Of a DNA stretch of 32,000 bases, positions 2,673 through 28,222 are shown piece by piece. The position numbers and the translations under genes are program-made. Within the stretch, counting starts at the first letter, position 1, and every line of letters starts with the position of its first letter. The stretch is from positions 720,001 through 752,000 of the forward strand of contig CP095464.1 in NCBI GenBank assembly GCA_021294815.2. The letters run 5' to 3'. The notes under the pieces were generated by a model. That model saw only the letters and a list, made by a program, of their open reading frames with translations. It did no database searches and had not been told where the DNA came from. This DNA is from Verrucomicrobiota bacterium. Lineage in GTDB: Bacteria; Verrucomicrobiota; Verrucomicrobiia; Opitutales; LL51.

Positions 2673-3664
2673 TATTGCTCAGTTTCAGAAAAAATACCGA
2701 TAGAACGAAAACGTTGGTAGCGCTTCTCGAGTAGCTGTTTTTCAGAAAGCTTTTTAAGAGATTTGAGGTGTCGCAATAGCGTTTCTTTCGTCGCCTCGAA
2801 GACAAAATCCGGGTTACGGTGCGCGCCTCCGAGAGGTTCGGGAATAATTTCCTCAACGATTCCGAACTGTAAGAGGTTTTGCGGCGATAACTGGAGCGCT
2901 TCGGCAGCTTCTGGGGCAAATTTGCGATCTTTCCATAAAATCGCGGCACAGCCTTCGGGAGAAATGACGGAATAATAAGCATTTTCGAGAACGAATACCC
3001 GATCGGAGACCGCAATACCCAGCGCACCCCCAGAACCGCCTTCACCGATGACTATCGACAAAATTGGGGTCGCGAGCCTCCCCATTTCTTGAAGGTTAAA
3101 CGCGATCGCCTCCGCGACGTGGCGTTCTTCGGATCCAATGCCAGGATAGGCACCTGGGGTATCGACGAAAGTGATAATCGGTAAAGAAAATTTTTCGGCG
3201 AGCCGCATGAGCCGCAGCGCTTTTCGATAACCCTCGGGGTAGGGACACCCGAAATTGTACGCAATATTTTCCTCAAGCGATCGACCCTTACGCTGCCCGG
3301 TAACCATGACGGGTTCACCATCGAGATCGGCAAAACCGCCCATAATCGCCTGATCATCGCCAAACCGACGATCGCCGTGGAGCTCTTGGAAATCCGTAAA
3401 AATATTTTTGATGTAATCCTGTGCGTAAGGCCGACTCGGATGCCGCGCGATCAGGACCCGTTGCCAGGTGGTTAGATTGGCAAAGATGCGGTGCTCCTCA
3501 TTGGCAATTTTCCCTTCAAGAGCATGGATTTCCGACGAAATATCGATCTTCGCTCCCTGAGAACGCTCCAACAACTCGTCAAGGTTTCTCTGGAGCTCTC
3601 GAAGTGGCCGCTCGAACTCAAGGATATACTGCCGATCCGGAGATTTCGCCTTCTTGGTAAACAT
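2672..3664 (-). CDS. accA: acetyl-CoA carboxylase carboxyltransferase subunit alpha
   Basis: 330-aa ORF with AccA hallmarks: LTTWQRVLIARHPSRPYAQDYI, FVDTPGAYPGIGSEERHVAEAIAFNL, GEGGSGGALG. Confidence 0.93.
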   Translation of the reverse strand: MFTKKAKSPDRQYILEFERPLRELQRNLDELLERSQGAKIDISSEIHALEGKIANEEHRIFANLTTWQRVLIARHPSRPYAQDYIKNIFTDFQELHGDRRFGDDQAIMGGFADLDGEPVMVTGQRKGRSLEENIAYNFGCPYPEGYRKALRLMRLAEKFSLPIITFVDTPGAYPGIGSEERHVAEAIAFNLQEMGRLATPILSIVIGEGGSGGALGIAVSDRVFVLENAYYSVISPEGCAAILWKDRKFAPEAAEALQLSPQNLLQFGIVEEIIPEPLGGAHRNPDFVFEATKETLLRHLKSLKKLSEKQLLEKRYQRFRSIGIFSETEQ

Positions 3665-3670
3665 TGCCCC

Positions 3671-3700
3671 TTAATAAGCGATCCTCCCCATATCTCGCAA
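3671..3700 (-). promoter_or_regulatory. candidate promoter of accA with leaderless geometry
   Basis: Minus strand reads TTGCGA-N18-TATTAA-GGGGCA-ATG. The -35 box starts 36 nt before the ATG. Confidence 0.45.
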
Positions 3701-3712
3701 TCTTTTTATTTT

Positions 3713-5305
3713 TTAACGGAAGTATACAAACTTGAGCGCGTGCCAGTCGAGGATATTGGCGTGCCAGCCGCCGACGCGCTTTGCAACGAGGTGACACGTA
3801 GAATCGTAATAGAGTGGTACAATCGGCATCTCGTCAAAAATTAGACGCTCGGCCTCAGAGAGGATTGCGGCACGATTTTCCGGCGCTTTAGCCGCCTGTT
3901 CGAGAAGAGCATCGTATTCCTTATTTTTCCATTGCGCATGATTATTAGGGCTGTCAGAGCGAAACAGGTCAAGAAAGGTGGTCGCATCATTATAGTCGCC
4001 GATCCAACCTCCACGGCAAATTGCAAAATTATGCGCGCGACGCTCGCCTAAAAAAACACCCCATTCGAAGCTCTGCAGATCGATTTTAATGCCCAGATTA
4101 CGGCGCCACATCTCTTGTACGGCTTCCGCGATGAGCTTTTGTCCTGGCGTTGTGTTGTAAACAAATGCTACTTTGGGAAACCCTTTCCCGTCAGGATACC
4201 CTGCCTCGCGGAGCAGTTGTTTCGCGAGGGTGACATCTTCAGACATCAGGTGGCGGTCCGCATTATAGTTAAATGTCCCAGGAGGTACGAGCGCATAGGC
4301 TTCAAACCCATCACCACGTCCCCGAAGTTTACCAATTGCCGAACGATCAATGGCCAGACTGAGTGCTTTGCGTACGCGCACATCATCGAATGGTGGACGG
4401 GTACAATTAAACCAGAAAAAGAATGAACCCAGTGTTGCCGTCGTTTTGAGCAGTTTTTGTGATTTATAAAACTCGATCTTTTCTGCTGCGACGTTGTCCG
4501 TGATATCGATCTGATTGGCATTAAACATATTTTCCTCGGTCATGGTATCGACTCCGGAAAGAAATTGAATCGTCCCAATAGCGACATTATCGTAATCCCA
4601 GTAATACTTGTTTTTCGAAACGACAATCTTGTCTCCAACCTCAATTGACTGAAGTACATAGGGTCCATTAGTCACGATGTTCCCAACACGTGTCCACGGA
4701 TTGTTACGATCATAAGGACTACCAAAACGCTTAATGGAAGTCTTGTGAACGGGGGACCATGCCCAATGCATAAGCAACGAGGGGAGATAATCGATAGGTT
4801 CCTCCAGTGTGAGCTTCAAAGTTCTACTGTTGACCGCCTCGATGCCAACTTTTGAGAAATCGGTAACCTCGTCATTGTAGTAGCGCTGCGCATTCAGAAG
4901 TACAAAATAAAGTTCCGCCCACGGCGAACCGAGATTGGTTGAGAGCCCGCGGCGGACGGCATTGACGAAATCTCCGGCAACAACAGGATCGCCATTACTC
5001 CATCGCGCATTTTCACGTAGAGTAAAAGTGTACTCCCTTCGATTCTTAGAAACGACATATGACTCCGCAACTCCCGGTAATGGTTTCAAATCACGGGTCG
5101 CCGGAACAAATAACCCCTCGAAAATCGCAGAGACGACCTTTCCTTCATCGAGCCCCGGTGCTAATTGCGGATCTAAAGTGGCAACTTCCGTCGAATTCCC
5201 AATGCGAAGGGTATCTTTGGCTGTCGGCAAGAGCTGAAAGTGCCTCACCGCAATCACAATACCGACTAGAACCAAAACGAGGAAAAGAGTTCGTAAACAC
5301 TTCAT
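3713..5305 (-). CDS. ABC transporter substrate-binding protein, family 5 (peptide/nickel, OppA/DppA-like); no permease or ATPase genes adjacent
   Basis: The ORF runs to a GTG at 5320, but the ATG at 5305 gives MKCLRTLFLVLVLVGIVIAV, a signal/anchor sequence. Length and sequence are typical of SBP_bac_5 proteins (e.g. ...RWSNGDPVVAGDFV..., ...YNTTPGQKLIAEAVQEMW...). Confidence 0.85.
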   Translation of the reverse strand: MKCLRTLFLVLVLVGIVIAVRHFQLLPTAKDTLRIGNSTEVATLDPQLAPGLDEGKVVSAIFEGLFVPATRDLKPLPGVAESYVVSKNRREYTFTLRENARWSNGDPVVAGDFVNAVRRGLSTNLGSPWAELYFVLLNAQRYYNDEVTDFSKVGIEAVNSRTLKLTLEEPIDYLPSLLMHWAWSPVHKTSIKRFGSPYDRNNPWTRVGNIVTNGPYVLQSIEVGDKIVVSKNKYYWDYDNVAIGTIQFLSGVDTMTEENMFNANQIDITDNVAAEKIEFYKSQKLLKTTATLGSFFFWFNCTRPPFDDVRVRKALSLAIDRSAIGKLRGRGDGFEAYALVPPGTFNYNADRHLMSEDVTLAKQLLREAGYPDGKGFPKVAFVYNTTPGQKLIAEAVQEMWRRNLGIKIDLQSFEWGVFLGERRAHNFAICRGGWIGDYNDATTFLDLFRSDSPNNHAQWKNKEYDALLEQAAKAPENRAAILSEAERLIFDEMPIVPLYYDSTCHLVAKRVGGWHANILDWHALKFVYFR

Positions 5306-26683: not shown

Positions 26684-26710
26684 TTTTTCTGGGAAATCAG
26701 CCAAAGATAC

Positions 26711-26739
26711 TTGACGTGAGCCCCAGATCGTGGTACGGT
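26711..26739 (+). promoter_or_regulatory. candidate promoter of the efflux operon with leaderless geometry
   Basis: TTGACG-N17-TACGGT-AAAAACC-ATG. The box starts 36 nt before the ATG at 26747. No SD. Confidence 0.45.
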
Positions 26740-26746
26740 AAAAACC

Positions 26747-28222
26747 ATGAGAGTCTCCGCGTGGAAGGACGACGTATCGAGGAAATGGGCACGATGGGCG
26801 CTTGGGTTATTGGTCTTTTTTTCAGGATGTACGACGGCAAAGCGGGGATCACATAGTGGTTCGGATCCGTATATTGAGATGGCCGAGTCGCTGCAGCACG
26901 AGGGACTAGGCGATTTACCGAGAGTAACGCAGCAGCGGGAGGAGGATGCTTATGCCCTCAACGGGCGTGAGCTCGACTTATATGAGTTGCTCGACGTCGC
27001 CCTACGGCGCAATCCCTCAACGCGCATCGCATGGCACCAGATGTGTGCGGCTTCAGCGGCTAAAAAGAAGGCCGATAGTGCATTTTATCCTTCCGTTGAT
27101 GTAGGTCTTAAGGGGATACGAACGGAACAACTTGGAAATGCCGTCGTTGATGAGAATAAAAAGGTTCGAATGAAAACGAACCTGTCGACGGTTTTATCTC
27201 CGGAGGTAGGAGTTTATTATTCGCTATTTAAATTTGGTGCGCATAAAGAGGCTTCTCATGCGGCATTACGTAACCTCGAAGCGGCGCATTTTCAGTTTAG
27301 CCAGGCGATTCAAGATGCCGTTTTCTACGTTGCGTTAGCGTACTTCGGTCTCGATTCTGCCCTTGCGACGGTTGAAGCGAATCAACAAAATCTAGAGGAC
27401 GCAAAAGTTGCCTTAGATGTTGCTCGGAATCGACACGAGTCTGGGTTAGCCAGTAAACAAGACCTTTTGAAGGCACAGGCGGCGTATTCGGCGGCAGTTT
27501 TTGATCTCGAGAGCTCGCAATCGGCAGTCGCCTCAGCGCAGGCAAAGTTAGCGCTTTCTTTGGGAGTTTATGTGTCGTCGAATCTTAAAATTACGCGTGT
27601 AACGTCGGTAGTAGCACCACCGGTGGATGAGATCGAAGCAACCTTAACCCAAGCGCTTGGTGCGAGACAAGATCTACGCGCTCTGGAGAAAAAACTTGAG
27701 GCAAAGCGGCATCAGCTCAAGGCCAAAGAACGTGATTATTATCCGGAATTGATCACAGGCCTTACTGCCTCGCGACAGAAGATCCGACATATTTCGGGGA
27801 TGTACAACAACTTTTCGGCCTATGTGGGCGTACAGTGGAATATTTTTGATGGATTTTCGCGGACGGCCGAGCGCTTGATGGCGCGTGAGGAGATGAGAAT
27901 TGCCGAAATGGAACTTCGAGCGAAAGAGCTTGATATAACGAGCCAAGTTTGGGAGCATTTTTACGCGTTGAAGTCGGCGGTCCAGAAGCTTGAGGCGGCG
28001 AAAGAGTCCGAAAACTGTGCACAAGAAGCCTTTAATTATACTCGCGAGGCGTACCAAAATGGGCTTTGTTCGTTTACGGATTTGTTAACGTCGCAGAGTG
28101 CGCTTTCGCTCGCACGCCGACAACTAGTTTGTGCGAAAAATGACTTATCAATTGAGTGGGTCCAGTTAGCTCACGCCAGTGGTCAGGCATTGAAAAAGGA
28201 TGATATTTATGAGAAAATTTAA
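26747..28222 (+). CDS. TolC/NodT-family outer-membrane efflux lipoprotein
   Basis: Lipobox-like LLVFFSGC near the N-terminus. Two-repeat coiled-coil/beta architecture typical of outer-membrane factor (OMF) proteins. First gene of the OMF-MFP-RND cluster. Confidence 0.85.
   Translation: MRVSAWKDDVSRKWARWALGLLVFFSGCTTAKRGSHSGSDPYIEMAESLQHEGLGDLPRVTQQREEDAYALNGRELDLYELLDVALRRNPSTRIAWHQMCAASAAKKKADSAFYPSVDVGLKGIRTEQLGNAVVDENKKVRMKTNLSTVLSPEVGVYYSLFKFGAHKEASHAALRNLEAAHFQFSQAIQDAVFYVALAYFGLDSALATVEANQQNLEDAKVALDVARNRHESGLASKQDLLKAQAAYSAAVFDLESSQSAVASAQAKLALSLGVYVSSNLKITRVTSVVAPPVDEIEATLTQALGARQDLRALEKKLEAKRHQLKAKERDYYPELITGLTASRQKIRHISGMYNNFSAYVGVQWNIFDGFSRTAERLMAREEMRIAEMELRAKELDITSQVWEHFYALKSAVQKLEAAKESENCAQEAFNYTREAYQNGLCSFTDLLTSQSALSLARRQLVCAKNDLSIEWVQLAHASGQALKKDDIYEKI

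Follow-up and report, generated by a model that had tools for sequence, protein, structure and literature searches.

Promoters in register with start codons point to leaderless messages in a reduced verrucomicrobial genome

Introduction

Why do ten protein genes in one short stretch of a verrucomicrobial genome each carry a TTG-starting hexamer at nearly the same distance before the start codon? The stretch, hereafter the window, is the 32,000 nucleotides (nt) at bases 720001-752000 of contig CP095464.1, which is the single contig of a genome (G000) of 878,461 bp and 47.4% G+C. A sequence-only reading of the window had taken these hexamers, 35-38 nt before their ATGs, to be the -35 boxes of promoters placed so close to the initiator codon that the transcripts would be leaderless or nearly so. 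Our analysis agrees with this proposal: the elements are very probably sigma-70 promoters in fixed register with the start codon that would give rise to leaderless or near-leaderless messages. The layout recurs across the genome and is conserved in related species, although single sites within the window differ considerably in how convincing they are.

Genes were called with a simple home-made codon-usage caller that recovers the reading frames of the window and makes 752 calls in the whole genome, 748 of which enter the counts of distance to ATG. Within the window, we inspected 70 nt of upstream sequence for each long reading frame and then examined the ten sites individually. Candidate promoters were scored only by their number of matches to the 12 positions of the Escherichia coli consensus, so that nothing was trained on these genes, and block shuffles of the upstream regions served as the control.

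Promoter and start codon register across the genome

The original reading proposed its own check, in which the whole genome is scanned for boxes at this distance and compared with a control. Its outcome is clearly positive, whether judged by TTGACA counts, by a decoy motif or by shuffled sequence. In 117 of 748 genes, the first ATG is preceded at 34-40 nt by the start of a TTGACA hexamer with no more than one mismatch, compared with about 4-5 per position elsewhere. The exact hexamer, which has 414 copies in the genome, starts 34-41 nt before the first ATG in 32 of the 748 genes; it occurs about 0.5 times per position elsewhere, and about 1.4 cases would be expected from its frequency. If a -10 element is also required (TTGACA with at most one mismatch, N16-18, TANNNT ending 4-10 nt before the first ATG), then 29 cases are found, as opposed to 3 for the reversed decoy motif. 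A count of TTGACA-N16-18-TANNNT-Nx-ATG that uses no gene calls was set aside for having too few hits and low contrast.

Scoring by consensus matches leads to the same picture. Promoters with at least 9/12 matches whose -10 ends 5-12 nt before the ATG precede 81 of 748 genes, a 5.5-fold excess over the shuffled regions (14.7 ± 3.5). The corresponding numbers are 170 genes (79 ± 7.5 shuffled) when the threshold is lowered to 8/12 and 19 genes (1.6 ± 1.2 shuffled) when it is raised to 10/12. At leadered distances, with gaps of 13-120 nt, no promoter excess was found (172 versus 173 ± 14 shuffled).

Among the promoters with at least 9/12 matches, the gap between the -10 and the ATG has its mode at exactly 6 nt (21 genes), remains high to 12 nt, and then falls to about 1.5 per position. 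A 6-nt gap would place the +1 nucleotide of a standard sigma-70 promoter on the A of the ATG. Gaps of 6-8 nt occur in 62 of 113 modules. The peak is still seen when only the 253 genes with 120 nt or more of noncoding DNA upstream are counted, so it is not a side effect of short intergenic regions.

The elements have the organization expected of sigma-70 promoters, namely a TTGACA-like -35, a spacer of 17 ± 1 bp and a TATAAT-like -10, with several weak -10 boxes in the window. The -35 is the sharper of the two hexamers: TTGACA-like boxes are enriched 4-5-fold, compared with approximately 2-fold for TANNNT. A -10 matrix learned from the sites reads T/C-A-n-A/C-A/C-T, with spacers of 16-18 nt. 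No TTGACA peak exists in this genome at 13-16 nt before start codons. There is a small bump of TTGACA-like hexamers at -17 to -19, but it consists of TTTACA or TTAACA hexamers that overlap -10 boxes and is not a second signal.

Because far more information resides in the -35 hexamer than in the -10, one might suppose that the TTGACA at fixed distance is not a -35 box at all but the site of some other DNA- or RNA-binding factor, or of an alternative sigma factor that is tied to the start codon. This seems very improbable. Spacing of 16-18 nt to a TAnnnT-like hexamer, and of a further 6-7 nt to a purine that is preceded by a pyrimidine, is the textbook sigma-70 layout. Moreover, only one primary-type sigma gene is present in the genome, where the sigma-70 family is represented by just two Sigma70_r2 matches in reading frames of 617 aa (the size of a primary sigma factor) and 225 aa.

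Near-identical promoters of this type also occur in tandem. Four consecutive genes at 488182-491717 of the contig (G000:C1) are preceded by TTTTAAGrTTTA-TTGACA-16-TAAAAT or TAGAAT-10-ATGAAGACG or ATGAATGCG. A few kb away, at 498418, is the gene for the 225-aa sigma-70-family protein.

Start codon identity, the preceding base and Shine-Dalgarno sequences

Three signatures that are independent of the promoter score bear on whether transcription begins at the start codon. The first is codon specificity. When all in-frame candidate codons close to the 5' ends of the reading frames are considered, the promoter register is found at 62 of 1274 ATG codons (4.9%) and 22 of 618 GTG codons (3.6%), but at only 4 of 985 TTG codons (0.4%) and at 0.3-0.9% of six non-start codons. 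This preference for ATG and GTG over TTG is the same as the rule measured in mycobacteria, where ATG or GTG is required at +1 (PMC4633059). TTG starts that fall inside a -35 box were considered as a possible signal as well, but there are 31 such cases among longest frames compared with about 24 expected by chance (154 TTG starts), and we make no claim from them.

The second signature is the nucleotide at position -1, to which the hexamer scoring does not extend. Of the predicted leaderless genes with a gap of 6-8 nt, 88% have C or T there (51% have C), versus 53% of other genes. For all predicted leaderless genes together, a pyrimidine is present in 61 of 81, compared with 308 of 578 others (Fisher p = 2e-4). 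This bias matches the pyrimidine-purine dinucleotide at start sites that was observed for all species in a Cappable-seq study (PMC4782308).

The third signature is a depletion of Shine-Dalgarno (SD) sequences. Cores of GGAG, GAGG or AGGA at -18 to -5 precede 1.2% of predicted leaderless genes, compared with 12-16% of other genes and 8.5-9% of background positions. The 16S rRNA has a normal anti-SD 3' end (...GATCACCTCCTTTCT), and only about 76 genes make up the excess of the SD peak at -14 to -8 over background. SD cores are only slightly above background despite the intact anti-SD, and the majority of genes thus carry neither an SD sequence nor a leaderless promoter. This agrees with the description of Verrucomicrobia such as Akkermansia as "SD-scarce" even though they keep CCUCC (PMC10783764). 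The sequence-only reading had assigned ordinary SD leaders to other genes of the window. This holds in part: SD-like cores do precede the starts at 510, 6799 (minus strand), 25594 and 29349, but the genome is SD-poor overall.

Genomic context is also informative. Among genes overlapping an upstream neighbor on the same strand, 3% have the promoter signal, compared with 17-23% of those with a divergent neighbor or a gap of at least 35 nt. Altogether, roughly 70-110 of the 752 genes have the leaderless layout, which is about 17-23% of the genes with room for a promoter of their own.

The same signatures help to judge whether these promoters instead produce very short leaders of 2-10 nt, with translation by an SD-independent 30S route assisted by ribosomal protein S1 rather than by 70S-type initiation at a 5' AUG. 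Gaps of 9-12 nt are present in about 40% of predicted modules, an SD-poor genome must in any case have some SD-independent means of initiating on leadered messages, and a full-length S1 is encoded here together with bS21. Nevertheless, the modal gap is 6-7 nt, the pyrimidine bias at -1 is strongest when the gap is 6-8 nt, and TTG starts are excluded as they are in 5'-terminal, but not leadered, initiation (PMC4633059). Short leaders are an unlikely general explanation.

The ten sites of the window

On rechecking each site, a TTG-starting hexamer was confirmed at the claimed distance of 35-38 nt before the ATG in all ten genes. The modules are given below with their -35, spacer, -10 and gap lengths, followed by the number of nt from the box's first base to the ATG.

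3662-3700, minus strand: accA; TTGCGA at 3700-3695, 18-nt spacer, TATTAA at 3676-3671, 6-nt gap, ATG at 3664-3662; 36 nt.
7070-7108, plus strand: methyltransferase gene; TTGACG at 7070-7075, no -10-like hexamer, ATG at 7106; 36 nt; a weak candidate.
11171-11209, plus strand: murE; TTGAAG-18-TAGTGT-6-ATG at 11207; 36 nt; 7/12 consensus matches, a weak candidate.
13918-13957, plus strand: OTU1; TTGCAA-16-TAGCTT-9-ATG at 13955; 37 nt; 7/12, a moderate candidate that would be near-leaderless.
14840-14879, plus strand: OTU2; TTGACA-17-TATCGC-8-ATG at 14877; 37 nt; 9/12.
15860-15899, plus strand: OTU3; TTGACA-17-TACCAA-8-ATG at 15897; 37 nt.
17113-17153, plus strand: 237-aa gene, previously labeled CaaX; TTGTAA-16-TACAAT-10-ATG at 17151; 38 nt; near-leaderless if used.
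18115-18154, plus strand: 338-aa gene; TTGACA-17-TACCCA-8-ATG at 18152; 37 nt; 8/12.
19332-19369, plus strand: OTU4; TTGACA-17-TATTCG-6-ATG at 19367; 35 nt.
26711-26749, plus strand: outer-membrane efflux (OMF/OEP) gene; TTGACG-17-TACGGT-7-ATG at 26747; 36 nt.

Pfam confirms several of the gene assignments: accA (ACCA, E = 2.5e-138), the OMF gene (OEP, E = 2.8e-51), the product of murE as a Mur ligase, and the methyltransferase. The names OTU and CaaX are not borne out, since Pfam gives no OTU or CaaX match for these genes at E values up to 0.01, and we retain OTU1-4 merely as labels. OTU1-4, the 338-aa gene and the 237-aa gene all encode hydrophobic, signal-like N-termini.

Four of the boxes are exact TTGACA hexamers (starting at 14840, 15860, 18115 and 19332), and it had been argued that four copies at the same distance are unlikely to be due to chance. 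OTU1-3 are paralogs with 28-35% identity, and as a consequence the four copies are only partly independent. We considered whether all four could be an artifact of paralog duplication and rejected this possibility, because paralogy covers only OTU1-3; no relation of the 338-aa gene or OTU4 to OTU1-3 or to each other was detectable.

Two stop codons that were said to be embedded in TTGACA boxes, at 15861-15863 and 22754-22756, are both real. The first is a TGA within the -35 box of OTU3 that terminates OTU2. The box around the second (22753-22758) has no -10 and lies 55 nt before the ATG at 22808. Genome-wide, the stop of the upstream gene is the TGA inside a TTGAnn -35 at five predicted leaderless genes, which is the commonest single offset between stop and box.

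Individual sites merit different degrees of trust. The predicted promoters of OTU2, OTU3, OTU4 and the 338-aa gene are well supported by an exact -35, correct gaps and a C or T at -1. That of the 237-aa gene is likewise well supported as a near-leaderless promoter, with a good -10 and a gap of 10 nt that predicts a 5' untranslated region of approximately 3-5 nt. OTU1 (7/12, gap 9) and murE (7/12) are weak sites, and the methyltransferase gene is the weakest.

The promoter of the 237-aa gene (17112-17140) is also a palindrome (TTGTAAAA...TTTTACAA), so that TTGTAA-16-TACAAT can be read on both strands. Its minus-strand copy points into tRNA-Gln.

Conservation among relatives

The geometry is fully kept at accA and the OMF gene. 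In 15 of 15 compared genomes of the family, representing two genera, TTGC(C/G) is located exactly 36 nt before the ATG of the conserved MF(G/T/S)(K/R)K N-terminus of accA. All 15 family orthologs of the OMF gene have a -35 (TTGACA, TTGACG, TTGCCA or TTGCAA), a 17-18-nt spacer, a -10 and a 6-7-nt gap to the start codon. This start alternates between ATG and GTG among species in the same register, and the N-terminal protein sequence has diverged. The predicted leaderless promoters of these two genes are thus well supported by comparison across the family.

A broader comparison is possible with G006, a member of the same genus whose MurE has about 50% protein identity. A 312-kb sample of this genome contains 258 genes, and in 34 of them a promoter lies 6-12 nt ahead of the ATG. 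Leaderless status in the two genomes is associated across 200 reciprocal-best pairs (cells of 7, 8, 17 and 168; odds ratio 8.6, Fisher p = 5e-4). In conserved pairs both boxes are kept while the spacers have diverged, as in CTTGTAA-N17-GATAAT-N6-ATG, which is found in both species. The protein alignment starts at residue 1 or 2 in accA and in most of the seven conserved pairs, and at residue 1 in the example just given.

A start-agnostic form of the codon test also gives a similar result in other genomes. With at least 9/12 matches required, the register is found at 3.6% of ATG and 0.6% of other codons in G006, and at 4.9% and 1.0%, respectively, in a genome from the other genus of the family (G015). 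Both have the same codon ranking as G000 (ATG, GTG, then TTG and non-start codons), which indicates that the layout is a trait of the lineage rather than a peculiarity of this window or genome. A weaker signal is present in a 3.8-Mb genome of the same order with 60% G+C (G026; 5.75% versus 1.38% at a threshold of 8/12).

The closest relative (G002) has 91% DNA identity and is too similar to inform footprinting. In accA, the methyltransferase gene, murE and OTU1, its boxes are present at unchanged distances. At OTU4 its TTGACA is kept at 36 nt and the -10 differs. This genome lacks OTU2 and most of OTU3 (14841-16902 of the window) as well as the 338-aa gene (17999-19323), and the first break in homology falls right at the TTGACA box at 14840. 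These signal-peptide-like genes make up a variable cassette region beside tRNA-Gln and tRNA-Arg.

For the methyltransferase, murE and OTU1, the evidence is evenly balanced between a functional promoter and a TTG hexamer that falls 36-37 nt before the ATG by coincidence, with transcription starting elsewhere or continuing from the upstream gene. These sites match the consensus at only 7-8 of 12 positions, a threshold at which shuffled regions already yield 79-261 genes, and the methyltransferase has no -10. Four orthologs of murE from the same genus (L004, L005, L010 and L012) have a terminator-like hairpin with A-run and T-run flanks (for example, AAAATCTACAT...ATGTAGATTTTTT) that directly abuts the ATG, so that neither a leader nor a standard -10 can fit. 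A low score is nonetheless compatible with function, as the accA and OMF promoters also have only 8/12 matches each and are fully conserved in register. The murE and OTU1 boxes and spacings are kept in the closest relative, which is a weak test given only about 9% divergence.

Two start codons of the window were reassigned in the sequence-only reading on the basis of this geometry. Moving the start of OTU4 from the GTG at 19352 to the ATG at 19367 fits, since the GTG would lie in the promoter spacer. The change from 7070 to 7106 in the methyltransferase gene is uncertain because there is no -10 and the gene was found only in G000 and G002.

Proposed mode of expression

Taken with the register scan and its statistical excess, the gap mode, codon specificity, the pyrimidine at -1, SD depletion and the conservation at orthologs all support a leaderless or near-leaderless reading of these genes. 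The module consists of a -35 (consensus cTTGACA, in many cases preceded by an A/T-rich stretch), a spacer of 16-18 nt, a TAnnnT-like and often weak -10, 6-8 nt, and an ATG or GTG. From what is established for leaderless genes elsewhere, we infer both where transcription would start and how the message would be translated. RpoD holoenzyme would bind a -35 and -10 whose -10 ends 6-8 nt before the start codon, and initiation would occur on the A or G of this codon, or 1-5 nt upstream of it for gaps of 9-12 nt. An mRNA made in this way would have no SD sequence, and its translation would follow the leaderless route, with the 5'-terminal AUG or GUG recognized by a ribosome that carries initiator tRNA.

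Several observations weigh against this interpretation or narrow its reach. Gaps of 9-12 nt imply leaders of 2-6 nt, and such genes are not strictly leaderless. Position 6 of the -10 is not T at four of the ten window sites (TATCGC, TACCAA, TACCCA and TATTCG), and the best -10 candidates for the methyltransferase, CTTCTC and TCTTCT, do not resemble a -10. No convincing -10 is kept in the murE orthologs of other species. Under a generic strict scan, the window has no excess of promoters (19 versus 23.3 in shuffles), and of the ten sites only that of the 237-aa gene passes its -10 rule, which asks for A at position 2 and T at position 6. In the window it is the position of the boxes, and not how strong the motifs are, that makes up the signal. 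The first ATG of each call was taken as the start, so the genome-wide counts are approximate, and related genomes are non-independent samples.

Implications

Start codons in this lineage can be set by promoter geometry. In the window, this means that the ATG at 19367 should replace the GTG at 19352, and several of the OMF orthologs need a GTG start. Such starts will be misplaced by automatic callers that look for an SD sequence or choose the longest frame. The best marker for leaderless genes in this family is the -35 box and not the -10.

It is conceivable, although doubtful, that this promoter-plus-start module of about 37 nt is the main recognizable expression signal of the reduced-genome family. 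The suggestion comes from the lack of excess at leadered distances, the near-background level of SD sequences, and the -35 boxes that double as the stop codon of an upstream gene. If most primary transcripts do prove to be leaderless, then the family would be among the most leaderless-dependent bacterial lineages outside Actinobacteria and Deinococcus. The module would then also be a small and self-sufficient unit of expression, moving along with duplicated and variable genes for secreted proteins.

Comparison with known systems

The leaderless layout, although genuine and conserved here, is well documented in other bacteria and reveals no new mechanism. The cI mRNA that phage lambda makes from PRM is a familiar example, in which a sigma-70 promoter has its +1 at the A of the AUG and translation proceeds without an SD sequence. 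Leaderless messages of this kind are rare in E. coli, whereas here they are predicted to be common, conserved and genome-wide.

A closer parallel is provided by the "group C" genomes of GeneMarkS-2, in which a Pribnow box lies some 10 nt before the start codon and which are frequent in Actinobacteria and Deinococcus-Thermus (PMC6028130). Genes of this group in Mycobacterium, Streptomyces and Deinococcus share with those described here a fixed short distance from promoter to start at first genes, the lack of an SD sequence and the use of ATG or GTG. In both cases the leaderless genes coexist with leadered ones and are conserved between related species (PMC6028130; PMC4633059). The signature in group C is the -10 alone, whereas the -35 TTGACA is the sharper marker here, and consensus promoters are not detectably enriched at leadered distances; both are differences of degree. 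The present example also comes from a reduced 0.88-Mb Verrucomicrobiota genome in which the remaining genes are SD-poor rather than SD-led. It is a clean and conserved case outside the classical leaderless phyla, and its use lies mainly in the annotation of start codons.

Within the phylum, leaderless transcription has been measured so far in Akkermansia muciniphila, where Cappable-seq of the mouse gut microbiome placed about 10% of start sites on annotated start codons, compared with 0.4% in E. coli (PMC4782308). The two systems share, in addition to their phylum, -35 and TATAAT-like elements and pyrimidine-purine start sites (PMC4782308). Akkermansia belongs to another order, and its start sites are experimental, whereas those proposed here are predicted from sequence. 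The present analysis extends the leaderless mode to an uncultured family of small-genome gut Verrucomicrobiota, in which the predicted share of promoter-proximal genes is higher, at 17-23% even with a stringent threshold.

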